Assembly: GCA_963676615.1 (NCBI GenBank)
Contig: OY781092.1
Span: forward strand, 129,413-193,412
Direction of reading: 5' to 3'
Length of the DNA stretch: 64,000 nucleotides
Source of the DNA: Candidatus Cloacimonadota bacterium
GTDB lineage: Bacteria; Cloacimonadota; Cloacimonadia; G963667145
The notes under the pieces were generated by a model. That model searched no databases. It saw only the letters and a program-made list of their open reading frames with translations, and had not been told where the DNA came from. A program made the position numbers and the translations under genes. Shown here in pieces: positions 45,035 to 60,840 of this stretch. The first letter of the stretch is position 1, and every line of letters begins with the position of its first letter.

Positions 45035-48000
45035 TTAATTTTGATCATAGTTTGGTAACCAGTCTGGGTCTGGCACATAGTCTTCGTATTTTTGAAATTC
45101 GAGGTATGGATCGAAGTCTGCGGGGTCTGCGCTGAAGCGTGGTTTGTAGTTTTCTTGCCAGGCTGGCGTGTTTTCTTGATACCACGAATAGTTGCCGCCT
45201 ACGCTGACGAGTTTTGCTGTCCAGGTGTTCAAAGGTTGGTTAAACGACTGTGCGCCCTGGAACATACAGAACATATCGTCGACATTGGTGACATCCCAAT
45301 TGTCCAAAGGTTGGTTGAAAGATTTGGCTTTGTAGAACATTGCCCTTGCCCTTTTTAGTTCGGAGACATTCCACTTGTCCAGTGGCTGATTGAAGGCGTA
45401 TGCTCGCAAAAATACTGTGCTCATTTTTGTGACATGCTGCACATCCCAGTCGTTGATGTTTTGGTTAAACGAAAAAGCACGGCGGAAGGCACTGTCCATT
45501 CTATCAAACCAATCGTCTTTATTTCTAGTTTCGTTATAGCGGGTGTTGAATTTCCAGCTGTTAATCGGCTGATTGAAGCGAAAAGCGCCCCAAAACATTC
45601 CGTAAATCGTTGTGACGCTGCCCATATCCCATTTGTCGAGTGGTTGGTTAAATTCGTATGCGTCGCAAAAAGTCGATGCCATTTTTTTTACATTGCCCAC
45701 ATCCCAGTTGTTGATGTTTTGGTTGAACACTTCTGCGTGGTAGAATGTGTAGGTCATATCGGTGACATTGCTCACATCCCAATAGCTGATGTCTTGGTTA
45801 AAGGAGGAATTTGGAGAAGAGACGCCCTCGCATTCGGTTGGGTGATCTTCCCAGTATTCTTGGGCGTCGGGGATTAGGTTTCTCAAGCTTGTGATTTGGC
45901 TGGTGTTGACATAGCGGACATCTTCGCCTTTGGCAATTTTTTTGATAAGTTCATCGAAGGTAATCGGCGGCACGAGCGCTCTTGGTTTTTCCTGAACTCC
46001 CCAATCGCTGCGAGTTATGTAGTCGAAATCGGCGAGGTTTGCATCTTGGGAAATATCCCAGTTTATCAGATTTTGTCGGAAAGAAGAGGCGCCATGGAAC
46101 ATACTTCTGGCGGTGGTAACGCTGCTGACATTCCATCTAGTGATGTCTTGGTCGAACTTTCTGGCTTCATCGAACATATACTCCATATCGGTAACGCTGC
46201 TGACATCCCAGTTGCCGATGTAGCCATTAAAAGGGGTGCCCTTGAACATATAGCCCATCGATGTGACTTTGCTGACATCCCAAGAGGGAACATCGCCGTT
46301 GAAGTTGTAGGCGCCGTTGAACATTGCTCGCATATTCGTCACTTTGCTCACATTCCAGCTGTCGAGATTTTGGTTGAAGCTTTGCGCGCCAGCGAACATC
46401 TGGCTCATGCTGGTGACATTGCCGACATTCCAGCCATTTAGGGGTTGATTGAAAGATTTTGCGTAGGCGAACATTCCGTCCATATTGGTGACATTGCTCA
46501 CATCCCAGCTGATGACATCGGGGTCGTTGAAGTTTTGCACGGTCTGGCAGCTGAGGATAGTTTCCCCTTTTGCATCAGCGACAGCTTGCATCAGCCCAGA
46601 CATATCGCCAGCGAGCTTTAAGCCCGCTAAATCCATGCCAGCGACGATTTTTGCCACAAGTTCTTGTTTGCTTATCGGGAATTTTGGTCTTTCGAGCGCT
46701 GTCCAATTGGTGTTTTCTTCGCTAGCGAAATAGTCGAAATTTTGGATCTTGTCTACATTCCAGCGGCTGATATCTTGGTCAAAATTATAGGCTCCCACAA
46801 ATGTTCGTTCCATATTGATGGCGTTTGCTGTGTTCCAGCCTCCGATAGAGGATGAGCCGCCGTTGTTAAAAGCTGTGGCGCCAGCGAACATCCTGTTCAT
46901 ATCTGTTACATATGCCATATTCCAGCTGCCGATATCTTGGTTGAATTTGGTCGCTTCGGAGAACATTCCGCTGGTGTTGATCGGTGCGACATTTTTCCAG
47001 TTGCCGATTTCTCTGTTAAAACTAGAGGCTCCTCCGAACATATAGCGCATATTCCTGACATTTGCGACATCCCAGCCGCTGATATCTTGGTTGAATGCTC
47101 TGGCTTTATAGAACATAGATTCCATATCCGTAACATTGCTGACATTCCATTCACCGATTTCTTGGTTAAAATTGAACACCGGAGGGCAATCGTCTGCCGA
47201 GTATGTTGTGCCATGAATTTCGTTATATTTTTGAGTTACTTTGCTCATCAGAAAAGACATATCGGTGATGAATTGGACATCCGCCAGCGCAACATCGACA
47301 TTGTCTGCGATTAGTTCGATGAGTTTGTCGAGGGTGACGGGGAATTTGGGCATCTCGCTGAGTTTCCATTCATAGTTATGATCCCAAGAACAAAAACCGC
47401 CAAATTGTTTGATTTCGCCTCTTTGGGTAAACGCAGTTAGAGCGTCGGATGACCAGGCGGTGAGGTCTTGGTCGAAAACGGTGTTGTCGGCAAACATCAT
47501 AGTCAGGTCGGTTACCTGATCTATATCCCAATCGCTGATGTCTTGGTTAAAGTTGGTTTCCCTAAACATATAGCTCATATCTGTCACCAAACCAGTGTTC
47601 CAGTCTCCGATTGGTCTGTCAAAGGCGGTGGCTCCTTCAAACATATACGACATATCCGTGGCGTTAAAATTCCAAGTGTTGTTGCTTGTGTTGGCGTTTA
47701 TATCTTGGTTAAAAGATTTGGCGTTTCTGAACATTGCGCTGAGGTTTTTGACGCTTTGCAAGTTCCAAGTCCCGATGGCTTGGTTAAAGCTCTCTGCGCC
47801 GTCGAACATATGGCTCATATCGGTGACTTGGCTGGTTTTTTGTCCCCAATTGCCGATGTTTCCGTTGAATTTTTTCGCACCAGCGAACATCCCTTTCATA
47901 TTGGTAACGCCGCTGACATTCCAGCCGCCCAGCGGTTGGTCGAAGATGGTGTCGCTCTCGAACATATAGCTCATATCGGTTACATTTGCGACATTCCAGC

Positions 48001-51000
48001 TGCCGATGGGTTGGTTGAACGAGTTTGCGCCTGCGAACATCCTGCTCATATTGGTGACGCCGCTGACATCCCAGCCGCTGATATTTTGGTTGAAACTTTT
48101 CACACTTTGGCTGGAGCGGCTTGCGACCAGATCCATAAGGTTAGACATATCGGTTATTTGTGACACATCAACATTGGTGACATCGTTGCCAGCAGCGATC
48201 ATCAGCACGAGGTCGCTTTTTGAGACTGGTAGATTTGGTCGGTTGGAAAATTCCCATTTTGAGGCGTTCAGGGCGTAGTCTTGGCTTTTGGTGACTTTGC
48301 CGATATCCCAGCCGCTGAGGTCTTGGTTAAACGAGATGGCGTTGTAGAGCATCGAGTCCATTTTGGTGACATTTGCGATATTCCAGTTGCTGATGTTTTG
48401 GTTGAAATCTTTCACTGTTTGACAATCGTCGATATCTTCTTGCAGGTAGTCGGCAACCTCTTGCATCAGGTCGGACAAATCGGTGATGCTGCTGACATCC
48501 AGATTTGTGACATCTTTGCCGAGGGCGATTTGGCGAGCCAGAGCGTGCTTGGTGTTTATCGGGAAGCTGGGCTTTTCGCTCGCGAGCCAGCTGTCTTTTG
48601 TGCCAGAATCGAAAAAGTTGAAATCGGTAACTGCGCCGACATTCCATCTGCTGAGGTCGCGACCGAAGTTGCTGGCACTATAGAACATTGCCCGCATATC
48701 TTCGACTCTGTCAACTTCCCAGTCCTTGATGTTGTCGTCGAAGGCGGTCGCCCCATAAAACATCGAGTTCATATTGGTAACCGAATCGACATCCCAGTCG
48801 CCGATGTATTTGGAAAAACTCGTGGCGTTTTTGAACATCGACGCCATAGTGGTGACATCGCTGACATCCCAGTCGCTGATGTCTTGGTTGAAGGCTATGG
48901 CACCCTCGAACATCGAATCCATAGTGTAAACATTGCCAGTTTTTGCGTTCCAGTCGCCGATATCGCCGTTGAACTTTGCTGCGCCCTTAAACATTCCGTC
49001 CATACGACGAACTGTGCTAACATTCCAGCTGCCGATATCTTGGTTGAAATTTTCTGCGTCGCCGAACATATATTGCATAAAATAAGCTTTGCCGACATTC
49101 CAGTCGCTGATGTTTTGGTTGAAGGCTGTGGCTTTATAGAACATCTCGCTCATATTATAAACTTGGCTGACATCCCAGCTGCTGATATCTTGGTTGAATT
49201 TTCCTGCCTCAAGAAACATCCCGCTCATTTCTCTGACTTTGCCAGTTTTTGCTCCCCATAGACCCACATTACCGTTGAAGTTGTCCGCTAGCGAGAACAT
49301 ACCGTTCATATTGGTGACTTGGCTGACATCCCAGCCGCCGATGTTTTGGTTGAAACTTTCGGCATTATCGAACATATAGCTCATATTAGTAACGCTGTCC
49401 ACTGACCAGCCGCCGATATTTTGGTTGAAGGAAGTGGCGTTTTGGAACATATGGTGCATATCTTTTACTCGGCTCACATCCCATTGGCTGATGTCTTGGT
49501 TGAAGCTTTGCACGACAGGGCACTCTTTTGGATTGTCGTAGTCCAGAGCGCTCGCGACTTGAGTCATCAGATTCGACATATCGGTGATTTGCGAAACATT
49601 GGCACTGGATACATCTCGTTGGTTGGCTATCAGGAGCACCAAGTTCTCCTTGGTCAGGGGGTAGCCCGCCAGTGCTGGTTTTTCGAGGATTGTCCACTGG
49701 CTGGAAGTCCCCGCGTCGAACTCGTCGATGGCTGTCACATTCCCGACGCTCCAGCCGCTGAGGTCTTTGTCAAAACCGCTGGCGCCCTTAAACATCCCGC
49801 TCATATCGGTAACATTTTCGACATTCCAGCCTCTAATATCTTGGTCGAAATTTTTAACGATGGAACAGGAACTCAAATTTTCGCCCAGAGAATCGGCAAC
49901 GGCTTGCATAAGGTTCGACATATCAGTGATTTGCGAAACATTGACTTTGGTAACATCTTTACCTTTTGAGATGAGCAGGACGAGATCCGCTTTGCGCAGC
50001 GGCAGATTTTTTAGGTTCGGCTTCTCCAAAATCGTCCAGTTTGTGCTGCTTGCGGTGTCAAAATTGTCGTAATTTTTCACAGAATCTATCACCCAGCCGC
50101 TGAGGTCTTGGTCGAAGTTGCTAGCGCCAGAGAACATCCCGCTCATATCGGAGACGCTGCTCACATCCCAGCCGCTGATATCTTGGTTGAGCGAAGACGC
50201 CCCTTGGAACATCTCTGTCATTTTGGAAACTTTTTCGACATTCCAGCCGCTGATATCTTGGTTGAAATTTTGCACGACGCTTTGGCTAGAGAGGCTAGCG
50301 ACGGCCTCCATCAAATAGGAAAAATCTCCCGTGAGCTTTACATTGCTCACATCCTCGTCATTTGCGATCATCTGGGCGAGCTGTTGTTTGCCAATCGGAA
50401 ATTGCGGTTTTTCATCTGCGAGCCAGCTTGCGTTGCTGTTGCTGTCAAAATCGTTGAACTCGGTAACTTTGTCGATATTCCAGCCGCTGATATTTTGGTC
50501 GAAAGCGCTTGCTCTCGCGAACATACTGCTCATATTCGCAACTCGGCTCGTTTTCCAGCCGCTGATATCTTGATTGAACAGACTCGCATCCTCGAACATC
50601 CCGCTCATATTAACGACGCTGTCAACATTCCAGCCGCCGATGTTTTGGTTGAACGAGCTTGCCCCTTTGAACATTCTGCTCATATCGGTGACTTGGCTCG
50701 TTGTCCAGCCGCTGATGTCCCGATTAAACGAGCTGGCGCCCTCGAACATCCCGCTCATATTTTTGATGTTGCTCACATCCCAGCCGCTGATATCTTGGTT
50801 GAAATTTTGCACAGCCGGGCAATTTTCGGGGCTGTCCGTTCCCGAAATTCTGGCAACATCTTGCATAAGGTCGGGCAGATAGTCGATATACGCAAGGCTC
50901 ACATAAGTGACATCTTCGCCGTTGGCAATCATTTGCGCCAATTTGTGGCGATTTAGGTGGAATTTTGGCTTTTGGGCGATAGTCCACTCGGGCGAACTTC

Positions 51001-53098
51001 CATCTGCAAATTTAAAGAAATTCGTAACCGTTTCTGTGTTCCAGCCGCTCAAATTTTGCGCAAAACTCGTCGCACCCGCAAACATCTGGCTCATATCGGT
51101 AACTTTTTCGATGTCCCAGCCGCTGATGTCTTGGTTGAAAGCGCTCGCATTTTCGAACATCCCGCTCATATTAGTAGCGCTGCTCGTTGTCCAGCCGCTG
51201 ATGTTGGCGTTGAAACTCGTTGCCCCCGCGAACATCCTGCTCATATAGCTCACATTGCCGACGCTCCAGCTGCTAAGGTCTTGGGCAAAATTTGCAGCAT
51301 CTTGGAAAATTCCAGACATATCGCCGACACTGCTTACAGACCAGCCGCCGATGTCTTGGTTGAAGGCGCTTGCCCCTTTGAACATTCTGCTCATATTGGT
51401 GACTTGGCTCGTTGTCCAGCCGCTAAGGTCTTGATTAAACGAGCTGGCGCCCTCAAACATCCCGCTCATATTGGTAACATTCTCGACATTCCAGTCGCTG
51501 ATATCTTGGTTGAAATTTTGCACGGTGTCCGCATTTGAAAAGTCGGTGACGATACTCATCAAGCCCGACATATCGGTGATTTGGCTGATGTTGGCGCTAG
51601 TCACATCCCTGCCGCTAGCGATCAAGAGCGCTAGGTCTTCTCTGCTCAGGGCGTAGTTGTCAAACTTTGGCTTCTCATCCAAAGTCCAGCTGGGGGAATG
51701 CCCGCTAGCAAAATCGCTGTGGTCGCTGATTTGGCTGACATTCCAGCCGCTAATATCTTGATCAAAAGCGCTTGCCCCCGCAAACATCTGGCTCATATTC
51801 GTAACATTGTTTGTCGTCCAACCGCCGATATTTTGGTTGAAAGCGCTCGCATCTTTGAACATCCCGCTCATATTTGTAACTTTGCCGACTTGCCAGTCTC
51901 TGATGTTGCCATTGAACTTTTTTGCCCCCTCGAACATTTGGCTCATATCGGTAACATTGCCCACATTCCATCCGTCGAGGTCTTGGTTGAAATTTGCGGC
52001 GTTTTTGAACATCCCACTCATATTGGTGACTTGGCTGGTTGTCCAGTCGCTAAGGTCTTGATTAAACGAGCTGGCACCCTCGAACATACCGCTCATATTG
52101 GTGGCGCCGCTCACATCCCAGCCGCTGATATCTTGGTTGAAATTTTGCACGATGGAGCAGGAGCTTAACTCCTCTCCCAAAGCATCGGCTACCGCTTGCA
52201 TCAAGCCCGACATATCGCTGATTTGGCTGACATTCGCACCAGCAACATTTTCGCCATTTGCAATCGCACTTACCAAATTTTCTTTGCTGAGAGGGTCGGA
52301 ATTTTTCATCAACTTAATTTCCCACGGAGTTGAATTGTAAGCCTGCAGCTCGCTCTTGGTTTTGGCGAAATTTTTACTGTCATAGCCCGCTTTGCTGACC
52401 GTAATGGTGTAGTTTTCTTGCTCTTCCAGCAAAATTTTTGTCGCTTTGGGTTTTATCAAAATCGTGTCGGCGCTGCTTTCTTCCTTAAAATTTGCAGAAG
52501 TGCCAGTCCATACACCATTGTCGTTTAAGATTTTCGCCTCGATGTAAAAGACAACCAAAGAGCCCTCATAAGTGAAATCCGCAAAGCCAAAATCTTGCGG
52601 ATCTGTGTCGGATTCTACCTCAACGACTTTTAGAGCTAGCTGATTTTCGCCTTCGTTTACCTTAAATTTATACGGCAACGACGAGGGAATTTTTAGGGTT
52701 TTATCGACAAAACTTTCGCTCTTGGGAACGGCAAAAATTGTGAGCCCAGTCGCGTTCAGCAGCTCAAATCTTGTGATTTCGTAGTCGCCGATGTCCAGAG
52801 TCAGCAAATTTGTGAGCGGGATTTTGACAGAAAATTCGGTAGTGTCGTTTTTCTTTCGATATTTAAGGGCTATTTTTGTGGCTGTTTGGGTGTCGCCAGA
52901 GCTTAGATTGACGCTTTGTCCAGTGGAGCTAAGTCTTTCCAAGCTAAAGTATACTTCGCCCTGTTTGTCTTCATTAACAGTTGGAGAATCGTCTTCGTTT
53001 TGGTTGCCGTCGAGGTCGTCCAAAATTTTGTCGAAACACGAAAAAAGCACCAAAATCATCGCCAAAAAAGCAACAAGCTTGACTCTTCTAAAATTCAT
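45035..53098 (-). CDS. giant (2687 aa) secreted/lipo-protein built from >60 DUF285/BspA-like repeats
   Basis: Signal peptide with possible lipobox (LFSC). About 11 modules, each starting with a ~50-aa intro (…LVLLIA.G.DVT.ANVSQITDMS.LM..VA…) followed by 5-8 copies of a ~23-aa unit F.GA.SFNQDIS.WDVS.VT.MS.MF, the DUF285 (Mycoplasma-lipoprotein type) repeat. Confidence 0.75.
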   Translation of the reverse strand: MNFRRVKLVAFLAMILVLFSCFDKILDDLDGNQNEDDSPTVNEDKQGEVYFSLERLSSTGQSVNLSSGDTQTATKIALKYRKKNDTTEFSVKIPLTNLLTLDIGDYEITRFELLNATGLTIFAVPKSESFVDKTLKIPSSLPYKFKVNEGENQLALKVVEVESDTDPQDFGFADFTYEGSLVVFYIEAKILNDNGVWTGTSANFKEESSADTILIKPKATKILLEEQENYTITVSKAGYDSKNFAKTKSELQAYNSTPWEIKLMKNSDPLSKENLVSAIANGENVAGANVSQISDMSGLMQAVADALGEELSSCSIVQNFNQDISGWDVSGATNMSGMFEGASSFNQDLSDWTTSQVTNMSGMFKNAANFNQDLDGWNVGNVTDMSQMFEGAKKFNGNIRDWQVGKVTNMSGMFKDASAFNQNIGGWTTNNVTNMSQMFAGASAFDQDISGWNVSQISDHSDFASGHSPSWTLDEKPKFDNYALSREDLALLIASGRDVTSANISQITDMSGLMSIVTDFSNADTVQNFNQDISDWNVENVTNMSGMFEGASSFNQDLSGWTTSQVTNMSRMFKGASAFNQDIGGWSVSSVGDMSGIFQDAANFAQDLSSWSVGNVSYMSRMFAGATSFNANISGWTTSSATNMSGMFENASAFNQDISGWDIEKVTDMSQMFAGATSFAQNLSGWNTETVTNFFKFADGSSPEWTIAQKPKFHLNRHKLAQMIANGEDVTYVSLAYIDYLPDLMQDVARISGTDSPENCPAVQNFNQDISGWDVSNIKNMSGMFEGASSFNRDISGWTTSQVTDMSRMFKGASSFNQNIGGWNVDSVVNMSGMFEDASLFNQDISGWKTSRVANMSSMFARASAFDQNISGWNIDKVTEFNDFDSNSNASWLADEKPQFPIGKQQLAQMIANDEDVSNVKLTGDFSYLMEAVASLSSQSVVQNFNQDISGWNVEKVSKMTEMFQGASSLNQDISGWDVSSVSDMSGMFSGASNFDQDLSGWVIDSVKNYDNFDTASSTNWTILEKPNLKNLPLRKADLVLLISKGKDVTKVNVSQITDMSNLMQAVADSLGENLSSCSIVKNFDQDIRGWNVENVTDMSGMFKGASGFDKDLSGWSVGNVTAIDEFDAGTSSQWTILEKPALAGYPLTKENLVLLIANQRDVSSANVSQITDMSNLMTQVASALDYDNPKECPVVQSFNQDISQWDVSRVKDMHHMFQNATSFNQNIGGWSVDSVTNMSYMFDNAESFNQNIGGWDVSQVTNMNGMFSLADNFNGNVGLWGAKTGKVREMSGMFLEAGKFNQDISSWDVSQVYNMSEMFYKATAFNQNISDWNVGKAYFMQYMFGDAENFNQDIGSWNVSTVRRMDGMFKGAAKFNGDIGDWNAKTGNVYTMDSMFEGAIAFNQDISDWDVSDVTTMASMFKNATSFSKYIGDWDVDSVTNMNSMFYGATAFDDNIKDWEVDRVEDMRAMFYSASNFGRDLSRWNVGAVTDFNFFDSGTKDSWLASEKPSFPINTKHALARQIALGKDVTNLDVSSITDLSDLMQEVADYLQEDIDDCQTVKDFNQNISNWNIANVTKMDSMLYNAISFNQDLSGWDIGKVTKSQDYALNASKWEFSNRPNLPVSKSDLVLMIAAGNDVTNVDVSQITDMSNLMDLVASRSSQSVKSFNQNISGWDVSGVTNMSRMFAGANSFNQPIGSWNVANVTDMSYMFESDTIFDQPLGGWNVSGVTNMKGMFAGAKKFNGNIGNWGQKTSQVTDMSHMFDGAESFNQAIGTWNLQSVKNLSAMFRNAKSFNQDINANTSNNTWNFNATDMSYMFEGATAFDRPIGDWNTGLVTDMSYMFRETNFNQDISDWDIDQVTDLTMMFADNTVFDQDLTAWSSDALTAFTQRGEIKQFGGFCSWDHNYEWKLSEMPKFPVTLDKLIELIADNVDVALADVQFITDMSFLMSKVTQKYNEIHGTTYSADDCPPVFNFNQEIGEWNVSNVTDMESMFYKARAFNQDISGWDVANVRNMRYMFGGASSFNREIGNWKNVAPINTSGMFSEATKFNQDIGSWNMAYVTDMNRMFAGATAFNNGGSSSIGGWNTANAINMERTFVGAYNFDQDISRWNVDKIQNFDYFASEENTNWTALERPKFPISKQELVAKIVAGMDLAGLKLAGDMSGLMQAVADAKGETILSCQTVQNFNDPDVISWDVSNVTNMDGMFAYAKSFNQPLNGWNVGNVTSMSQMFAGAQSFNQNLDSWNVSKVTNMRAMFNGAYNFNGDVPSWDVSKVTSMGYMFKGTPFNGYIGNWDVSSVTDMEYMFDEARKFDQDITRWNVSSVTTARSMFHGASSFRQNLINWDISQDANLADFDYITRSDWGVQEKPRALVPPITFDELIKKIAKGEDVRYVNTSQITSLRNLIPDAQEYWEDHPTECEGVSSPNSSFNQDISYWDVSNVTDMTYTFYHAEVFNQNINNWDVGNVKKMASTFCDAYEFNQPLDKWDMGSVTTIYGMFWGAFRFNQPINSWKFNTRYNETRNKDDWFDRMDSAFRRAFSFNQNINDWDVQHVTKMSTVFLRAYAFNQPLDKWNVSELKRARAMFYKAKSFNQPLDNWDVTNVDDMFCMFQGAQSFNQPLNTWTAKLVSVGGNYSWYQENTPAWQENYKPRFSADPADFDPYLEFQKYEDYVPDPDWLPNYDQN
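45300..52300. repeat. intragenic tandem DNA repeats within the giant gene
   Basis: 60-80-nt stretches recur with >90% identity, e.g. around 50700-50770, 51410-51480 and 52030-52100 (ccagccgct..gtc..gattaaacgagctggcgccctcgaacatcccgctcatatt...). The many plus-strand ORFs in this span are repeat artefacts. Confidence 0.7.
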
Positions 53099-53250: not shown

Positions 53251-54774
53251 CTATTTGCGCTCTTTCACAACTCTAAGCCCATAAGTTTTGCTAGTGTCGC
53301 TTGGAGCAGCAGACTGGAGAAATTCAATTGCGATGTATGTGCTGTCGGCTTGATAGCTCCCGCCTTTCATAGCTCTGTCTCCAGTTGTTTCATCTTTTTC
53401 GTCAAAACACCATTCCCACAGGTTCCCGCTCATATCGTAAACGCCCAACTGATTTGTTGTCCGTGATTTTACGGTGTGGCAAGAGTCCTGGCTGTTTGAG
53501 CTAAACCAAGCAACCTTTTCAAAAGCGTTGATGTTTCCAGCTAAAGCTCCGCTTGCCCAGTATAAATTGGTGCATTCTCCGTTGTTTCGCAGCAAAATTT
53601 GGTCAGACTTTTTGTCTTCGATGAACATCGCCGCAAGATTCCACTCGGAAACGGTTGGCAGTCTGAATCCAGTTGCGTTTTCGTCTAAAACCAACTGGTC
53701 TTCGTCAAAAGATGTCGGATTTTTAATGACGGCATCGCCATTTTTTTTGTAGTAGCAAGTGTAGTTTGGCGTTGGTGAAACCTGGGAGTTGCAATATTCG
53801 GTCAAAGCGTTGCAAAAGATAATCGCCTCTTTCCAAGAAATTTTACTAATCGGATGGTTGTCCGAGATTGCAGTTGGATCGTCAGAGAAAGAGTAGCCGT
53901 TTGATTCTGCCCAAGTGGTTACATCGTCCCAAACTTTTTTGGTTATTTCGGTTTGAGCAATCCAAAAAGCTGTTTTAACGCTGTCATCTCCAGAAGGATG
54001 AGCAGGAAATTGCTTTATTTTGGGAACAAAATTCATTATCATATCGGCGTTGCCCAAAAAGTCAACTTGATCTCCTGGTGCAAAATCTATTTCAATTTTT
54101 ATGGAATCTTTCAGTCCGCTTCTGGCAACGCCTGCGGGAGTAGCTCGTATGTAGGTTGAGCCCGTGTCGTTTGCTGTGACTAAGCCAAAATCGTTGACGC
54201 TGGCGATATTGGCGTTGTCAGAAATCCAAGTGACGCCAGAATCGACATAGATATCTGGGCTGAAGTAAGCTTTTAATTGGCTGGTCTGTCCTTTTGCTAT
54301 CTGAACAGAGGTGGAATCTAGCCAAAATCCCACAATCTCAAAGTAGCAAACAAGTATCATCGAAGCGCTTACTTGTTTGTCTTCCAATGTGATTGCTTTT
54401 GCGGTAATCTCGGAAGATCCAGCCCTTTTTGCCACGATAGTTCGCTGAAAATCGTTGTCGTCAATAAATTCGGCAATATTTGGGTTGGAGATGCTCCAGA
54501 CGATGTTTTTTTCCAAAGCGTCGCTGGGCGAGTATGATAGGGTAACGGTTGTGGTGTCAAATTCTTTAGCTTCTGGAGGCGATGTATTTTCGATAGGGAT
54601 AAGATAAATTTTTATTTGCTTTTGAGTAAAAAAAATGTCGTCGAGATCAAAATTTTGTTCTGAGGTGCTATTGGGAGAATAAAGACAACCGCCGAGGCTG
54701 GCGGCGATAGCGGCGACGAACAAAAAGAGTCTAAATTTCATTTTTCTTTTTTTTACTCCATATATTACGAACAA
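53251..54774 (-). CDS. lipoprotein with Ig-like (Big_2-type) domains and a C-terminal formylglycine-generating-enzyme (FGE/sulfatase-modifying) fold domain
   Basis: Lipobox LGGC. The C-terminal ~280 aa carries FGE-type motifs (NHPISKISWKEAIIFCNALT ... GVYDMSGNLWEWCFDE ... RVVKER). Confidence 0.65.
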   Translation of the reverse strand: MFVIYGVKKRKMKFRLFLFVAAIAASLGGCLYSPNSTSEQNFDLDDIFFTQKQIKIYLIPIENTSPPEAKEFDTTTVTLSYSPSDALEKNIVWSISNPNIAEFIDDNDFQRTIVAKRAGSSEITAKAITLEDKQVSASMILVCYFEIVGFWLDSTSVQIAKGQTSQLKAYFSPDIYVDSGVTWISDNANIASVNDFGLVTANDTGSTYIRATPAGVARSGLKDSIKIEIDFAPGDQVDFLGNADMIMNFVPKIKQFPAHPSGDDSVKTAFWIAQTEITKKVWDDVTTWAESNGYSFSDDPTAISDNHPISKISWKEAIIFCNALTEYCNSQVSPTPNYTCYYKKNGDAVIKNPTSFDEDQLVLDENATGFRLPTVSEWNLAAMFIEDKKSDQILLRNNGECTNLYWASGALAGNINAFEKVAWFSSNSQDSCHTVKSRTTNQLGVYDMSGNLWEWCFDEKDETTGDRAMKGGSYQADSTYIAIEFLQSAAPSDTSKTYGLRVVKERK

Positions 54775-54929
54775 AATAATCTTTGTTTTTTTTTAAGTGA
54801 AATCGAAAATGTTAATAAATTGTCAAGAATTAAAGAGATAAAAGCCAAATTTAGAAAAAAGATTTGACAAATAATGAGTGTAAATCCGATTTAGGGAATA
54901 TAAAAAATGAGGAAACAGACGAGGGAAAA

Positions 54930-55823
54930 ATGCTAAAGAACAAACTATTTCTATTTATTGGGTTTATGGTGGTTTTGCAGATTTTGGTGTCTTGGGTAGG
55001 TTTGGGCTCAGATTTGAACATTGGCACGAACCCGGCAACGGGGAAGTTTGCGGTGTGGAATTCGCCGAACGACAACTCGATCCAAAAGCAGATTTTGACC
55101 GAGTTTCAGCCAGATCAATACCTAGCGGAAAATGGCGGCACTGGCGAAATCTTGGGCAGCGCCGCTCTCTACGGTTTTTTTGCTAAATTCACCGCTTCGC
55201 CTTTGGGCACATCCAAACTTCTGTTTATGATTTTGGTCGTCGATTTGCTTCTTTTGGCTGGAGCGATTTTTGTCGCCAAAACCGCGAGCTTTATCCCTGG
55301 TAAATGGCAATTGTTGTGGGAAAATATCTACAATTTTTTTGCGGAACTCGTGGGCGACTCGCTGGGTAAAGACCGTCTGAACTTTTTGCCATACATCGCC
55401 ACGATTTTTCTTTTTATTCTAATGAGCAACATTTTGGGCGTTGTGCCTGGACTCTCCGAGCCAACCAGAAACCTGAATGTGCCGCTGGGAATGGGCATCG
55501 TCGCCAATGTCGTGGTGCACTTTATGATGATAAAAGTCAAGGGCGCTTGGGGCTATATGAAAGGCTACGCTGAGCCGATGTTTTTCCTAACGCCGCTGAA
55601 TGTTTTGGGCGAAGCATCAAAGCTGGTGTCGATTTCGTTCCGTTTGTTCGGCAACATTTTGGGCGGCTCGATTATCTGCGTTGTGATCTCCAACTTGACC
55701 AAATTTATCGTTTTCCCGATGTTTCTTTCGGGATTTTTTGGAATATTTATCGGCATTATTCAAGCGTTTGTGTTTACAATGCTCTCGCTTTCGTATCTAA
55801 GTGCTGGAATAGTAGAGGAATAA
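54930..55823 (+). CDS. atpB: F-type ATP synthase subunit a
   Basis: Conserved Arg in ISFRLFGNILGG. Five or six TM helices. RBS GAGGGA ahead of the ATG at 54930. The track ORF's 22-codon extension is probably not translated. Confidence 0.8.
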   Translation: MLKNKLFLFIGFMVVLQILVSWVGLGSDLNIGTNPATGKFAVWNSPNDNSIQKQILTEFQPDQYLAENGGTGEILGSAALYGFFAKFTASPLGTSKLLFMILVVDLLLLAGAIFVAKTASFIPGKWQLLWENIYNFFAELVGDSLGKDRLNFLPYIATIFLFILMSNILGVVPGLSEPTRNLNVPLGMGIVANVVVHFMMIKVKGAWGYMKGYAEPMFFLTPLNVLGEASKLVSISFRLFGNILGGSIICVVISNLTKFIVFPMFLSGFFGIFIGIIQAFVFTMLSLSYLSAGIVEE

Positions 55824-55826
55824 CAA

Positions 55827-56576
55827 ATGATAGACCCAGGAATAATTCGGATTGCGGCGTATATCTCTGCTGGCATCGCTGTGGGAACGGCATCTTTGGC
55901 AACGGGCATCGGCTCGGGCTATATCGCTGGTGGAGCCGTGGAGTCGATGGAGCGGCAACCACTTATTAGCGACAAACTTTTCCGCAGTATGCTCATCGGG
56001 CAAGCCGCCACAGGAACAGGAGCGATTTTGTCGTTGGTGATAGGGCTTTTGCTACTTTTTGGCGGATTTGATAATCCCGCAGGTGGCTGGTTCCGAGTCG
56101 CTTCACTTTTGGGAGCTGGCATCGCTATCGGTCTTGGCGCAATCGGCTCTGGCTATGGTGCAGGCGCTGCTGGTGGACAGGCGTGCGTAGCAATGGGGCG
56201 TGTCCCCGACAAAAACGCAACCCTTTTGGGTAATATGCTCATCGGGCAGGCGCTTAGCCAGTCGGTGACGATTTACGCACTGCTGATTTCGCTGATGCTG
56301 CTTTACTCCACGCCGCTGCAGCCTAGCGGTTTGGACACGGGCTCGATTGTGATGAAGTCGGTGGCTTTGGTTGCTTCGGGAATATGCATCGGATTTGGGA
56401 GCATCGGCTCTGGCATCGGAATTGGCGAGCTAGCGGGCAAATCGAATATGAGCATCGCCAAAGTGAGCAAAGGCGAAATGGGCGTGATGCGGGTGATGTT
56501 TATCGGTTCGGCAGTTACGCAATCGACGGCGGTTTATGCTTTGATTGTCTCGTTTTTGCTGATGTTTATAGTTTAA
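55827..56576 (+). CDS. triplicated c-subunit-like protein: three helical hairpins, none with the ion-binding carboxylate
   Basis: Three GxGxGxG helix-1 motifs (GIGSGYIAGGAV, GAIGSGYGAGAAGG, GSIGSGIGIGELAG), each followed by an RxP-type loop and a helix 2. At the position aligning with the E of atpE (AVSESTGIY), the three repeats have G, Q, Q (AATGTGAIL, ALSQSVTIY, AVTQSTAVY). Confidence 0.7.
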   Translation: MIDPGIIRIAAYISAGIAVGTASLATGIGSGYIAGGAVESMERQPLISDKLFRSMLIGQAATGTGAILSLVIGLLLLFGGFDNPAGGWFRVASLLGAGIAIGLGAIGSGYGAGAAGGQACVAMGRVPDKNATLLGNMLIGQALSQSVTIYALLISLMLLYSTPLQPSGLDTGSIVMKSVALVASGICIGFGSIGSGIGIGELAGKSNMSIAKVSKGEMGVMRVMFIGSAVTQSTAVYALIVSFLLMFIV

Positions 56577-56629
56577 ATAAAAAAGAAAATAAAAAAAGTT
56601 CTTAATTTTTAAGAGTTAGGAGGAAAGTT

Positions 56630-56872
56630 ATGGATATGACATTGATTGTTAAGGCGGCATCGCTGCTAGGAGCGGGCATTTGTATGGGTCTTGGTGCTAT
56701 CGGACCGGGAGTCGGAGAGGGTTTTGTGGGCGGAAAAGCTTGCGAGGGTATCGCCAGAAGCCCCGAGCATGCAGGGCTTATCACCAGAACTATGCTTGTT
56801 GGACAGGCTGTGTCGGAGTCAACTGGTATCTACTCGCTGGTTATTGCGCTTCTTTTGATGTTCTCTGTGTAG
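56630..56872 (+). CDS. atpE: ATP synthase subunit c with Na+-binding-type motif
   Basis: 80 aa. [19 protein letters not shown] is near-identical to the Na+-binding helix 2 of the Ilyobacter c-subunit (ESTxxY). Glu also present in helix 1 (GVGEGF), as in the two-carboxylate Fusobacterium type. Strong RBS AGGAGG. Confidence 0.85.
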
Positions 56873-56935
56873 TGACTTTTTTTGGATTACGAAAAAAAGT
56901 TTGATAACTAAAGATTTTAAAAGGAGTCGTATCTT

Positions 56936-57412
56936 ATGGTAAGCGTAGATTATTCGCTGATTTTGGTGATTCTGAACTTTATTGTTTTGATGTGGCTTTT
57001 GAATAAGTTCATTTTTCAAAATGTAAAGAAATTTTTGGAAAAGCGCCAGGAGAAAATTGCCACTGAGTTGAAAGAGACGCAGGCGGCACGAGACGAGGCA
57101 AAAGAGCTTGTTTTGCAAAAAGAGCAGGAGCTAAAAAAGGCGGATTCGGAAATCAGGAGCGAGCGCAAACGGGTTCTGAGTAAGGCAGAGGGCGAGGCAA
57201 CGCAGATAATTGATGAGGCGAAATCTCGCGAAAAGGCGATTTTGCAGGAGAGCAAAAAGGAGCTTCTTTCGCAAAAAAGTGCGGTTGTTGCGGGCATTAG
57301 CGACGAGGTTATTGCTTTGGTAGCAAAGGTTTCGGAGAAAATTATTGGCAAAAAGTTGGATGAGAAGACCGACGCTGAGCTTATCAAAAAGATGATAGCC
57401 GAAGGAATTTAG
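56936..57412 (+). CDS. atpF: ATP synthase subunit b
   Basis: N-terminal TM helix followed by a long charged coiled-coil. 158 aa. Position within the operon. Confidence 0.7.
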   Translation: MVSVDYSLILVILNFIVLMWLLNKFIFQNVKKFLEKRQEKIATELKETQAARDEAKELVLQKEQELKKADSEIRSERKRVLSKAEGEATQIIDEAKSREKAILQESKKELLSQKSAVVAGISDEVIALVAKVSEKIIGKKLDEKTDAELIKKMIAEGI

Positions 57413-57416
57413 GACT

Positions 57417-57944
57417 GTGAGAAGTAAGATAATAGCTTCCAGATATGCCAAGGCTTTGTTTTCGTTGTTGCAAAAGGAGAAGCTTGATGTTTTTGGGCAA
57501 GATGCGCAAAAGTTAATCGCTTTTTTTGCGGCGAACGACCAACTGGCGAAGAGTTTGAACAGTTCTGTTTTTGGGAAAGCCAAAAAGGAGAGCTTTGTTA
57601 AGGAGCTTTCTGGGCAGCTGAGTGACGCCAAGATTTGGAATAACTTTTTGTGGCTGCTGGTGAAGAAGCATCGTTTTGATTTTGTGGTGGAGATCTTGCA
57701 GGAGCTTGCGGGCGTTATTTTGGATTATCAAAATGGCGAAAATGTGCTTTTAGTGCTGGCGCGTGAGCATTCGGAAGGTTTGCTGGCGGAGATCAAGGAA
57801 GCTATTGGAGAGAAAATCGGTAAGAAACCGAAAATTTCTTTGGTGATGGATACGGCAATTTTGGGTGGATTTGTGGCGCATACCAAAAATTTTACGATAG
57901 ATTGTTCGGTGAAAAGCAGTTTGGATAGATTGGCTGCTCAATAG
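57417..57944 (+). CDS. atpH: ATP synthase subunit delta (OSCP)
   Basis: N-terminal ASRYAKALF motif. 175 aa. Operon position. Confidence 0.7.
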   Translation: MRSKIIASRYAKALFSLLQKEKLDVFGQDAQKLIAFFAANDQLAKSLNSSVFGKAKKESFVKELSGQLSDAKIWNNFLWLLVKKHRFDFVVEILQELAGVILDYQNGENVLLVLAREHSEGLLAEIKEAIGEKIGKKPKISLVMDTAILGGFVAHTKNFTIDCSVKSSLDRLAAQ

Positions 57945-57954
57945 GAGTTAATGG

Positions 57955-59454
57955 ATGAAAATACAACCTGATGAAGTAAGTAATATTTTGAAGAGTAGAA
58001 TCGACGATTTTACTTTTGATGTAGATATCGCCGAGACTGGAAAGGTGGTGGAAGTTGGCGATGGTATCGCGCGTGTGTATGGTTTGCATAATGTGCTGGC
58101 CTCGGAGATGGTCGTTTTTGAGAACGATGTTTACGGAATGGCGCTGAACCTGGAGGAGGACAATGTTGGTTGTATCCTTTTTGGTAATGGTAGCAGCGTT
58201 AAAGAGGGCGACACCGTTAAGCGAACTGGAAAAGTTTTGCAGGTGCCTGTGGGCGAAGCGATGCAGGGCAGAGTGGTTGATCCGCTGGGCAGTCCGCTGG
58301 ACGGAAAGGGCGAGATTAAGGCGGAGATGTTTTTGCCTGTGGAGCGAAAAGCTTTGGGCGTTATCCAACGGCAACCCGTGGAAGAGGCTTTGCAGACAGG
58401 CTTGAAAGCTATCGATTCGATGATTCCTATCGGTAGAGGACAGCGTGAGCTTATCATTGGCGACCGTCAGACAGGGAAAACTGCGATCGGTTTGGATACG
58501 ATTATCAACCAAAAAGATACGGGCGTGAAGTGTATTTATGTGGCTATCGGGCAAAAAGCTTCGACTGTGGCTGGCATCGTGAAAACTTTGGAAGAGCATG
58601 GCGCGATGGCTTATACGACAATCGTTAGTGCGACGGCGTCGGTTTCGCCAGCTTTGCAATATATCGCTCCTTTTGCGGGCGCTTCGATTGCGGAGTATTA
58701 TCGCGACAAGGGCGAGCACGCTTTGATTATTTACGACGATTTGTCCAAGCACGCTGTGGCGTATCGTGAGCTGTCGCTTCTTTTGCGTAGACCGCCGGGT
58801 CGTGAGGCTTTCCCAGGCGATGTGTTTTATTTGCACTCTCGCCTTTTGGAGAGGGCGAGCAAGTTGAGCGATGAGCTTGGTGGTGGCAGTCTTACGGCTT
58901 TGCCGATTATCGAGACGCAAGCGGAAGATATTTCGGCTTACATTCCTACGAATGTGATCTCGATTACGGACGGGCAGATTTATTTGTCGTCAAAACTGTT
59001 TTATTCTGGGCGTCGTCCTGCGATTAACGCGGGATTGTCGGTTTCGAGAGTGGGCGGAAGCGCGCAGATTAACTGTATGAAAAAAGTTGTCGGTCAGTTG
59101 CGTTTCGACCTAGCGCAATATGCGGAGTTGGAAGCTTTTGCCAAGTTCGGTTCGGATTTGGACAAAGCAACGCAGGCGCAGCTTCGTCGTGGAGAGCGTC
59201 TTATCCAGATCCTCAAGCAAGGGCAGTATAAGCCGCTGGAGGTTGCCAAGCAAATTATGATAATTTTTATGGCGAACAACGGCTATTTGGACGAAGTTGA
59301 ATTGGGCAAAATTCCTGTTGTGGAGGAGAAACTTTTCGAGACTTTGGACGATAAACATCAAGATTTGAAAAAATCTTTGTCTAGCGAAAAACTTACCGAC
59401 GAGCTTAAAGAAAAAATGCACGCTCTTTGTAAGGAGGTCGTGGCTAAGTTTTAG
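57955..59454 (+). CDS. atpA: ATP synthase subunit alpha
   Basis: Walker [16 protein letters not shown]. 499 aa. Alpha-type C-terminus. Confidence 0.95.
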
Positions 59455-59495
59455 TCATTTTTGCTAAATTAAAAGAAGCAAAAATTCTTTTTTGA

Positions 59496-59570
59496 GCGGG
59501 CATAGCTCAGTGGTAGAGCATCAGCTTCCCAAGCTGAGGGTCGCGAGTTCGACTCTCGTTGCCCGCTCCA
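59496..59570 (+). tRNA. tRNA-Gly (anticodon CCC)
   Basis: 75 nt. Acceptor gcgggca/tgcccgc. Anticodon loop ttCCCaa. GTTCGACTC T-arm. CCA encoded. Followed by a T7 run. Confidence 0.8.
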
Positions 59571-59595
59571 TTTTTTTATTTATGAGGTTTGATTT

Positions 59596-60840
59596 ATGTT
59601 GATATCTTCGATCGATTTGATGAACGGAAAGGCGGTGCAGCTTCGCAACGGCAAAGAGAAAGTTCTGGAAAAGTCCGATCCTGTGGCGCTGGCAAAGGAG
59701 TTCGCCAAACTCTCGCAAGTGGCTGTGATCGATTTGGATGCGGCTATGGGCAATGGCGAGAATGAGCAGCTCATCAGACAAATTTGCACTGTTGCCGATT
59801 GCCGCGTTGGTGGCGGGATTCGCACTCTGGAAAAAGCGCAAAAGATTTTTAGTTACGGCGCACAAAAGTTGATAATCGGCACGAGTGCTTTCGCAGACGA
59901 TACGATAAATCACGCCTTTTTGCAGGAGCTGGTGGACAATTTTGGCAAAGAGCGGATAATGATTGCTATCGACGCTCATCACGGCAAAATCGTGACGAAA
60001 GGCTGGAAGCACGATACGGGGCTTGATGTTTACCAAACGGTGGCAGAGCTGGAAAAATATTGCGGCAGCTTTTTGTTCACGATGGTGGAGACCGAGGGCT
60101 GTATGACGGGCATCGATGCGGAAGCTATTCAAAAGTTGCAGACCAAAAATCAGCTGACTGTGGCTGGCGGCATCAAAGACGATGAGCAGGTGATTGAGTT
60201 GAGCAAAATGGGCTACGATGTGCAGGTCGGAATGGCGCTCTACACGGGGGCGATCGATTTGCAGAAATGTTTTGTCGAGTCTTTGGCGTGGGACAAAGCC
60301 GAGCTTTTGCCGACGATTACGCAAGATTTGTGCGGCAATGTCTTGATGCTGGCGTATTCGAATCGCCAGTCGCTTTATAAAACTTTGTCTGCGGGCAAAG
60401 TGACCTACTATTCCAGAAGCCGCAAATCGCTTTGGACGAAGGGCGAGACCAGCGGCAATTTTCAGGATTTTATTTCGGTGCGCACCGATTGCGACAGGGA
60501 TACATTGTTGATTTTAGCAGAGCAAAACGGCGTTGCGTGTCATCTGGGAAACTATTCTTGTTTTGGAGATAAACCTTTTGATCTGAATGTGTTATACAAG
60601 ATTGTGCAAGACAGGTTCGCCAATCCGCGTCCAGAGTCTTACACCGCCAAACTTGCCAAGGGAGATTTGCTCAAAGAGAAGATTATGGAAGAGGCGGAAG
60701 AGGTGTGTGACGCGCGCTCGCGGGAGGACAAAATCTGGGAAGTGGGCGATTTGCTCTACTTTGTGACCTGCTATCTCGCCAAAGAGGGCATCTCGTTTGC
60801 TGAGATTTTTAACGAGCTGCAGAGACGGGATAGGGAGTAG
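59596..60840 (+). CDS. trifunctional fusion: HisA-like (beta/alpha)8 ProFAR-isomerase domain, HisI (PR-AMP cyclohydrolase) and HisE (PR-ATP pyrophosphatase)
   Basis: N-terminus MLISSIDLMNGKAVQL...VGGGIRTLEKA...IIGTSAF (HisA/HisF fold). Middle VLMLAYSNRQSLYKTLSAGKVTYYSRSRKSLWTKGETSGNFQ...CHLGNYSCF (HisI). C-terminus SYTAKLAKGDLLKEKIMEEAEEV...DLLYFV (HisE). Confidence 0.65.
   Translation: MLISSIDLMNGKAVQLRNGKEKVLEKSDPVALAKEFAKLSQVAVIDLDAAMGNGENEQLIRQICTVADCRVGGGIRTLEKAQKIFSYGAQKLIIGTSAFADDTINHAFLQELVDNFGKERIMIAIDAHHGKIVTKGWKHDTGLDVYQTVAELEKYCGSFLFTMVETEGCMTGIDAEAIQKLQTKNQLTVAGGIKDDEQVIELSKMGYDVQVGMALYTGAIDLQKCFVESLAWDKAELLPTITQDLCGNVLMLAYSNRQSLYKTLSAGKVTYYSRSRKSLWTKGETSGNFQDFISVRTDCDRDTLLILAEQNGVACHLGNYSCFGDKPFDLNVLYKIVQDRFANPRPESYTAKLAKGDLLKEKIMEEAEEVCDARSREDKIWEVGDLLYFVTCYLAKEGISFAEIFNELQRRDRE

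Follow-up and report, generated by a model that had tools for sequence, protein, structure and literature searches.

A triple-hairpin c-subunit paralogue without canonical carboxylates in the F-type ATP synthase operon of Cloacimonadota

To our knowledge, the only characterised natural F-type ring that contains a non-binding hairpin is that of Acetobacterium woodii, and its c1 is the only characterised subunit of a hybrid rotor. In A. woodii and C. aceticum, the gene for this subunit (atpE1) lies between atpB and the one-hairpin genes atpE2/3 (PMC7911925), and the A. woodii ring comprises one c1 and nine one-hairpin subunits (PMC9171764). Here, we describe a gene in the corresponding position of a Candidatus Cloacimonadota bacterium, within a stretch of 64,000 nucleotides of contig OY781092.1 (positions 129,413 to 193,412, forward strand; hereafter the window). 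Its product, termed c3, is a paralogue of the c subunit with three tandem hairpins and no canonical ion-binding carboxylate. We refer to its atpE partner as one-hairpin c and to the two-hairpin AtpE1 as A. woodii c1. Our observations concern the anatomy of the c3 sequence, its conservation, the selection acting on it, its homology to A. woodii c1 and an asymmetry in the retention of Na+ ligands; from them we infer that c3 belongs to the ring, in what copy number, how large the ring is and in which direction the enzyme operates.

The Pfam ATP-synt_C profile (PF00137) matches c3 in three stretches (E 9.7e-37, 125.5 bits against a cut-off of 24), the result expected of the three tandem c-subunit hairpins that an initial annotation of the window had read in its 249 amino acids. 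Site residues are numbered 32, 63, 65, 66, 67 and 70 within each hairpin, 65 being the essential carboxylate column, which was set by aligning the repeats and atpE with the c subunits of E. coli, I. tartaricus and Spirulina. This alignment places Gly63, Gln145 and Gln232 of c3 in that column, in agreement with the Gly, Gln and Gln of the initial annotation, and the Glu of the AVSESTGIY motif in the adjacent atpE. The repeats are 32–38% identical to one another and 39–49% identical to atpE. The outer-helix ligands of hairpin 3 (V230, S233, T234 and Y237) are canonical, and hairpin 2 has drifted to Ser-Val at 66/67. Two motifs that had been ascribed to every hairpin hold for two of them each: the helix 1 glycines form GxGxGxG in hairpins 2 and 3 but only GxGxG (G27/G29/G31) in hairpin 1, and the RxP loop is found in hairpins 1 (RQP) and 2 (RVP) but not in hairpin 3, which has K-V-S. 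Relatives outside the window clade (six genomes, all with a site-less c3) carry R[F/Y]P at this third loop (56460..56468), which within the clade has become K-V-S or K-I-G. A further clade-specific gain is Glu201 (56427..56429), in the inner helix of hairpin 3 at the equivalent of position 34, two residues beyond the position-32 ligand. This position is not a canonical ligand site, and its occupant is Gln in clade member P0003 and Tyr, Phe or Asn elsewhere. The G+C content of c3 (54%) and atpE (52%) is raised over the window mean (45%); this is explained by Gly/Ala-rich coding and is not evidence for foreign origin.

An AlphaFold2 model of c3, built on a 77-sequence alignment, has six long helices, with a predicted local distance difference test score (pLDDT) of 94 and a predicted template modelling score (pTM) of 0.88. 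The inter-hairpin linkers of the model are periplasmic and have 5 and 10 residues, short enough that only adjacent packing of the hairpins would be permitted. By sequence, the best match of c3 in the PDB is 4BEM_J (E 1.3e-21, 38% identity over hairpins 1–2), the A. woodii c1 subunit, crystallised inside a c-ring; its carboxylate positions hold Glu in the first hairpin and Gln in the second. Foldseek against the PDB also places 4BEM_J first (template modelling score, TM, of 0.83 on the target; root-mean-square deviation of 1.5 Å), followed by V-type c, c'' and K (TM 0.8). The comparison with A. woodii c1 drawn in the initial annotation is thus borne out by sequence and by fold, and the shared gene slot with atpE1 adds to the support that these matches give to ring membership. 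Among NCBIfam models, those for F-type c score 110–124 bits on c3, and those for V-type K at most 54 bits against cut-offs of at least 101. Other family assignments were tried and rejected. For a V/A-type proteolipid (NtpK/AtpK), the best V-type model reaches 53.8 bits against a cut-off of 188, and the neighbours encode F-type a, b, delta and alpha; for the c subunit of an N-ATPase, TIGR03322 gives 99.9 bits against a cut-off of 130.85, and the operon reads B-c3-E-F-H-A, not atpDCQRBEFAG; for AtpI/UncI (PF03899), c3 matches PF00137 only. By profile and hairpin fold, c3 is a homologue of the c-subunit family but, judged from its aligned residues, not an ion-carrying c subunit.

Scanning genomes at one per species, we identified 71 c3 loci, nearly all in Cloacimonadota, and 68 full-length c3 sequences. 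The closest genomes are complete chromosomes of Cloacimonadota or Cloacimonadales metagenome-assembled genomes, of approximately 1.55 Mb. The gene upstream of c3 is atpB in 69 of the 71 loci, and the order atpB, c3, one-hairpin c, atpF, atpH, atpA is seen in all 56 loci long enough to show it. The initial annotation had looked to related atp operons for the same gene; there, c3 is followed directly by a one-hairpin c with Glu in 66/66 loci not cut by a contig end. Most c3 orthologues keep one or two Na+ sites, whereas the window c3 keeps none. Hairpin 2 has Gln at the carboxylate position in all 68 full-length sequences. Hairpin 1 has a complete site, E32-V-E65-T-G-F, in 14 of the 68 and is otherwise dead, both carboxylates being lost together (S-A-Q/G-T-A/G-F). 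Hairpin 3 reads I-V-E-S-T-Y in 54/68, and I-V-Q-S-T-Y in the window clade and a few others. Zero-site forms occur in the window clade, in L015/L061, in L050, in L045 and in the non-Cloacimonadota pair L067/L068; since the nearest relatives of these lineages keep the hairpin-3 Glu, or the lineage is a separate deep branch, the zero-site state would have arisen about five times. The initial annotation had presented c3 as a singular extreme. On these alignments it is instead one end of a phylum-wide series (EQE, QQE, QQQ) with a repeated zero-site state, and not an isolated oddity. The complete Na+ sites of the orthologues would make sense only in a rotor that faces subunit a, and they support ring membership.

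The c3 reading frame is unbroken and of the same length in approximately 70 genomes. This rules out three separate genes, and with them the possibility, entertained in the initial annotation, that a frameshift hides three genes with intact carboxylates. Within the window clade, the ratio of nonsynonymous to synonymous divergence (dN/dS) of c3 is 0.02–0.06, against 0–0.05 for one-hairpin c, 0.03 for atpA and 0.04 for atpB; with dS at approximately 0.9–1.8, near saturation, these ratios are rough but far below 1. They rule out a pseudogene. Over 77 sequences, 39 columns are invariant. By these measures, the site-less c3 is functional and under strong purifying selection. The arrangement of start sites is also conserved. 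From the atpB stop to the c3 start, the gap is 1–7 nucleotides in most of 66 loci (mode 3), with the c3 Shine-Dalgarno sequence inside atpB; one-hairpin c is preceded by an AT-rich spacer (median 30 nucleotides, consensus GGAGGA). Such spacing fits a c3 level that would be tied to the single-copy subunit a, with one-hairpin c presumably abundant and translated strongly and independently. Cloacimonadota are anaerobic fermenters with Rnf and the ATP synthase as their sole ion-motive machinery (PMC12590816).

Longer fusions of the same kind are found in the databases. Relatives of 324 amino acids are four-hairpin proteins (EQQQ/EQQE) and those of 405 amino acids five-hairpin proteins (EQQQQ/EQQQE), and related sequences reach four consecutive hairpins without a carboxylate. 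The Desulfobacterales operon in CP070771.1 reads atpI, atpB, four-hairpin c, one-hairpin c, and one on a metagenomic contig reads atpI, atpB, five-hairpin c, one-hairpin c, atpF, atpF'. These fusions come from phyla other than Cloacimonadota: loci L072 (8001..8975), L073 (8001..9218) and L074 (1530..2747), in Desulfobacterales and in a metagenomic contig, hold four-hairpin (EQQQ) and five-hairpin (EQQQE) F-type c fusions in the c3-equivalent slot, with atpI present. An exhaustive search of 1.84 billion representatives returned 51 at E ≤ 1e-30 and 244 at E ≤ 1e-10, with hairpin counts of 2, 3, 4, 5 and 7–9. Carboxylate-free representatives comprise 9 two-hairpin, 5 three-hairpin and 1 four-hairpin proteins, some of them possibly fragments. 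The c3 gene belongs to a widespread and apparently undescribed class; none of the literature searched describes an F-type c that has three hairpins or lacks a site, although a prior mention is possible. The same search representatives include metagenomic c polyproteins of 524–1139 amino acids (P0306, P0338, P0356 and P0385) in which 7–9 hairpins were detected, all with Glu; these resemble the single-chain rotor of Methanopyrus kandleri.

Further evidence comes from the way Na+ ligands are shared between hairpins. A Na+ site takes residues 32 and 65 from one hairpin and the carbonyl of 63 and residue 66 from the adjacent one, with 67 on the same outer helix (PMC3692424). In the fused K subunit of E. 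hirae, the equivalents of 63 and 66 (Leu61 and Thr64) lie in hairpin 1 and those of 32 and 65 (Gln110 and Glu139) in hairpin 2 (PMC2359735), which implies that the neighbour-side ligands come from the N-terminally preceding hairpin. If a live monomer follows a multi-hairpin protein, the last hairpin of that protein must therefore keep 66, 67 and 70 even if it is itself dead, whereas the middle hairpins need not. We compared 99 representatives at 50% identity, each with at least one dead hairpin. Tyr70 is kept in 40 of 52 dead last hairpins and in 3 of 96 dead middle hairpins, and Ser/Thr at both 66 and 67 in 35/52 and 12/96, respectively (Fisher, 8e-22 and 2e-11, in statistics that ignore kinship); a larger set agrees. 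First hairpins keep Gln/Glu32 in 57 of 79 cases when live, and Tyr70 almost never. This asymmetry argues that c3 sits in the ring beside live monomers.

We consider it rather likely that each ring contains one copy of c3, which provides three ion-blind positions and lowers the Na+/ATP ratio. In such a model, c3 would play a structural, ion-blind part in a heteromeric (hybrid) F-type c-ring, its three linked hairpins inserted side by side among one-hairpin c, probably as a single copy. The outer helix of hairpin 3 (Val230 carbonyl, Ser233, Thr234 and Tyr237) would complete the Na+ site of the following live c, such that all monomers keep working sites and each turn of a normal-sized ring moves three ions fewer. 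Purely by way of illustration, an 11-hairpin ring with 8 sites would give approximately 2.7 Na+/ATP, compared with 3.7 for c11 and 3.3 in A. woodii; for the ring size we assume a likeness to A. woodii (nine one-hairpin subunits and c1) and to the c11 of Fusobacterium nucleatum. The lower ratio would raise the sodium-motive force reachable per ATP hydrolysed, or permit synthesis at low phosphorylation potential. An enzyme with V-type c subunits synthesises ATP at 90–150 mV (PMC9171764), so a preference for ATP-driven pumping is not compelled. At subunit a, two to three c subunits act together, and c-ring defects do less harm when clustered than when dispersed (PMC8809890); the latter finding would offer a rationale for fusing the blanks in one polypeptide. 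Entry into the ring, on which the initial annotation had made its gearing argument conditional, gains indirect support from the live-site orthologues, the purifying selection, the ligands of the last hairpin and the gene spacing.

Several points weigh against this model. We know c3 here from genes alone. A single E56Q hairpin is enough to abolish ATP synthesis by a fused c10 of Bacillus PS3 (Mitome 2004, as cited in PMC8809890), and it is hence a real mechanical difficulty how torque could be generated in the synthesis direction across three consecutive blanks. In the window clade, the loop of hairpin 3 is without RxP. The ligand-retention statistics take no account of phylogeny, and the position of Tyr70 on the neighbour-hairpin side is deduced from helix geometry (i+4 with Ser66). 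Finally, atpG, atpD and atpC are missing from the neighbourhood: neither the 64-kb window nor L001–L005 contains a beta P-loop, and the genes are not within 8 kb in the five closest genomes.

A regulatory role for c3 within the ring, though compatible with all the data, seems to us unlikely. The adjoining ion-blind hairpins of c3, a block roughly matching the a/c interface in width, would then park or latch at subunit a and stop both Na+ leak and idle ATP hydrolysis, the change of gear being a side effect. The blanks are indeed always contiguous in one polypeptide, three to four of them in independent families, and the replacement residue is almost always Gln rather than a hydrophobic one; at any one time, subunit a has two to three c subunits opposite it, and the effect of defects depends on whether they are clustered or dispersed (PMC8809890). 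However, the graded series EQE, QQE, QQQ looks more like quantitative tuning of sites than a switch, and A. woodii manages with a single blank. We equally doubt that c3 serves to scaffold or nucleate the assembly of the c-ring or of the a-c interface, replacing a missing AtpI and being absent from, or irrelevant to, the mature rotor. It is true that the window has no atpI upstream of atpB, that c3 is tightly coupled to atpB and that it has no ion site to contribute. Yet four-/five-hairpin relatives coexist with atpI in one operon, so the fusion is no substitute for AtpI; there are orthologues with complete Na+ sites, the last hairpin keeps ligands for its neighbour, and the closest homologue to have been characterised is a genuine subunit of a ring. 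The initial annotation had offered an assembly or regulatory factor as its alternative, and the coexistence with atpI and the kept ligands weaken the assembly half of that proposal.

The remaining readings depart further from the hybrid-ring model. That c3 carries an ion after all, through a non-canonical residue such as Glu201, is very improbable: this residue does belong to a transmembrane helix, two positions away from the position-32 ligand, and one-hairpin c uses Glu32, but clade member P0003 has Gln in its place, and other zero-site lineages, P0095 and P0005 among them, have Tyr, Phe or Asn. Glu201 also stands half a helical turn away from the position that faces the site, and there is no outer-helix carboxylate to meet the arginine of subunit a. 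We see just as little chance that c3 has left the ATP synthase and forms a membrane assembly of its own, with another function, although it is still transcribed together with the atp genes. The loss of the defining catalytic residue and the diverged hairpin-3 loop of the window clade point that way; against this stand the invariant operon position across the phylum, the live-site orthologues and the retention of the glycine packing motif, the RQP and RVP loops and the neighbour-site ligands. Least credible of all is a functionless, decaying duplicate, or an artefact of assembly or frameshift. Although all three essential residues are lost, the dN/dS values given above, an intact frame of identical length in the six clade genomes and the 39 columns invariant over 77 sequences are at odds with decay.

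In the window, c3 is embedded in an atp cluster that runs from atpB to atpA (Table 1). The c3 gene starts 3 nucleotides past the atpB stop and ends 53 nucleotides before atpE. For atpB, the mechanical open reading frame (ORF) begins at TTG 54864, and the ATG at 54930 agrees with the starts of orthologues (MLKNKL...). In the 319-amino-acid ORF (54864..55823), the Pfam domain of subunit a begins at residue 120, preceded by an N-terminal extension of approximately 75–100 amino acids with one hydrophobic segment. One-hairpin c carries a two-carboxylate Na+ motif (Glu32 and Glu65), which has been characterised in F. nucleatum (PMC3692424). In 62 of 67 related genomes, one-hairpin c has Glu32; in the other five, this residue is Gln32. 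Upstream of atpB, the window contains no atpI; the gene there is on the opposite strand. In the window clade (57955..60840 in the window; L001–L005), the cluster ends at atpA and is followed by one HisA-like/PRA-CH/PRA-PH fusion ORF (hisA-hisIE). In 38 other Cloacimonadota loci, the beta subunit is found approximately 4.9 kb downstream of c3; when a database was queried with a Cloacimonadota beta to find that of the window clade, the best 120 matches all came from other clades. A promoter/terminator scan of 54500–59800 gave counts close to those of shuffled sequence, and a 9/12 promoter-like site at 56545–56572, upstream of atpE, is not above chance. Short opposite-strand ORFs (55–68 amino acids) across c3 were rejected as without support.

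Table 1. Features of c3 and of the atp cluster, in window coordinates
Feature	Coordinates	Strand	Description
atpB (Fo subunit a)	54930..55823	+	Pfam ATP-synt_A, E 1e-44; RLFGN arginine motif
Shine-Dalgarno-like AGAGGA for c3	55814..55819	+	Within the final atpB codons, 7 nt (nucleotides) ahead of the c3 ATG
c3	55827..56576	+	249 aa (amino acids), ATG start, TAA stop; without canonical carboxylate; AlphaFold2 pLDDT 94; dN/dS 0.02–0.06
Hairpin 1, aa 1–80	55827..56066	+	Site residues S A G T G L; loop RQP
Gly63 codon GGA, replacing the hairpin-1 carboxylate	56013..56015	+	By alignment
Hairpin 2, aa 84–162	56076..56312	+	Site residues A L Q S V Y; loop RVP
Gln145 codon CAG, replacing the hairpin-2 carboxylate	56259..56261	+	By alignment
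Hairpin 3, aa 171–249	56337..56573	+	Site residues I V Q S T Y; loop K-V-S
Gln232 codon CAA, replacing the hairpin-3 carboxylate	56520..56522	+	By alignment
Spacer	56577..56629	+	81% A+T; consensus AGGAGG at 56618–56623, 6 nt ahead of the atpE ATG
atpE (one-hairpin c)	56630..56872	+	Pfam E 2.9e-18; Glu32, Val63, Glu65, Ser66, Thr67, Tyr70
atpF (subunit b)	56936..57412	+	Pfam ATP-synt_B, E 1e-14
atpH (subunit delta/OSCP)	57417..57944	+	Pfam OSCP, E 1.5e-30
atpA (F1 alpha)	57955..59454	+	Final atp gene of the cluster; GDRQTGKT P-loop; 75–96% identical to Cloacimonadota atpA

Other large genes of the window are recorded here as separate observations. The divergent neighbour of the atp cluster (53251..54774, minus strand) encodes a probable lipoprotein with Big_2 and FGE-sulfatase (sulfatase-modifying-factor-like) domains. 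A 2687-amino-acid protein (45035..53098, minus strand) has 23 DUF285 (PF03382) repeats after an N-terminal hydrophobic segment, and its gene takes up one eighth of the window. A 669-amino-acid protein with FliG_M and FliG_C (25842..27851, plus strand) is far longer than a typical FliG.

The c-ring sets how many ions are moved per ATP, a ratio that acts as the gear of cellular bioenergetics. Where the A. woodii ring has one blank, c3 has three consecutive blanks, conserved across a phylum and evolved repeatedly, with four-/five-hairpin relatives elsewhere. If c3 is in the ring, Brownian-ratchet models and models of cooperation between two to three subunits must explain an ion-free arc of approximately 100 degrees. 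The hybrid-ring model, if true, would moreover show in concrete terms how fermenters and syntrophs that live close to the thermodynamic limit adjust Na+/ATP in the small steps EQE, QQE and QQQ. Current annotation names all such proteins “F0 subunit C,” and metabolic models built on that name would overestimate the ion cost of ATP. A more speculative extension, to which we assign a small chance, is that the F-type rotors of whole anaerobic lineages hold an unbroken run of ion-blind hairpins, three in Cloacimonadota and as many as four in the five-hairpin relatives. This sector, which matches the a/c interface in width, would also serve for parking and against leakage and yield the lowest ion/ATP ratio known for an F-type enzyme. 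If this were so, torque would be generated without a carboxylate at every step.

Multi-hairpin proteolipids of other rotary enzymes share single features with c3. A triplicated proteolipid has been noted for the A1Ao ATP synthase (PMC2359735). Like c3, the A1Ao proteolipid of Methanocaldococcus jannaschii and other methanogens joins three fused hairpins in one rotor subunit; unlike c3, it is of the archaeal A-type and the only c subunit of its own ring. Ruppert et al. are said to have described in 1999 that the triplicated methanogen proteolipid has fewer carboxylates, with two kept. The V-type proteolipids (NtpK of E. hirae; eukaryotic c, c' and c'') have duplicated hairpins with one site lost per duplication, and Na+ ligands shared between consecutive hairpins. 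In contrast to c3, every V-type subunit keeps one carboxylate, the blanks alternate with sites, and the operon and stator differ. The c11 ring of F. nucleatum has the same set of Glu32, Glu65, Ser66, Thr67 and Tyr70 as the window one-hairpin c, but it is homomeric and without a multi-hairpin paralogue. The engineered fused c of PS3 contains covalently linked hairpins, some of them defective, as does c3; these constructs are artificial, however, and whereas a single E56Q hairpin abolished ATP synthesis there, three natural Gln/Gly hairpins are kept under selection in c3.

The closest likeness is to A. woodii c1. Both proteins are F-type hairpin fusions encoded directly after atpB and before one-hairpin c, and in both a Glu-to-Gln hairpin stands beside Na+-type monomers. 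They differ in that A. woodii c1 has two hairpins, keeps one Na+ site and contributes one blank per ring, whereas c3 has three hairpins and no site, its operon lacks atpI, and its partner c carries Glu32 rather than Gln32.

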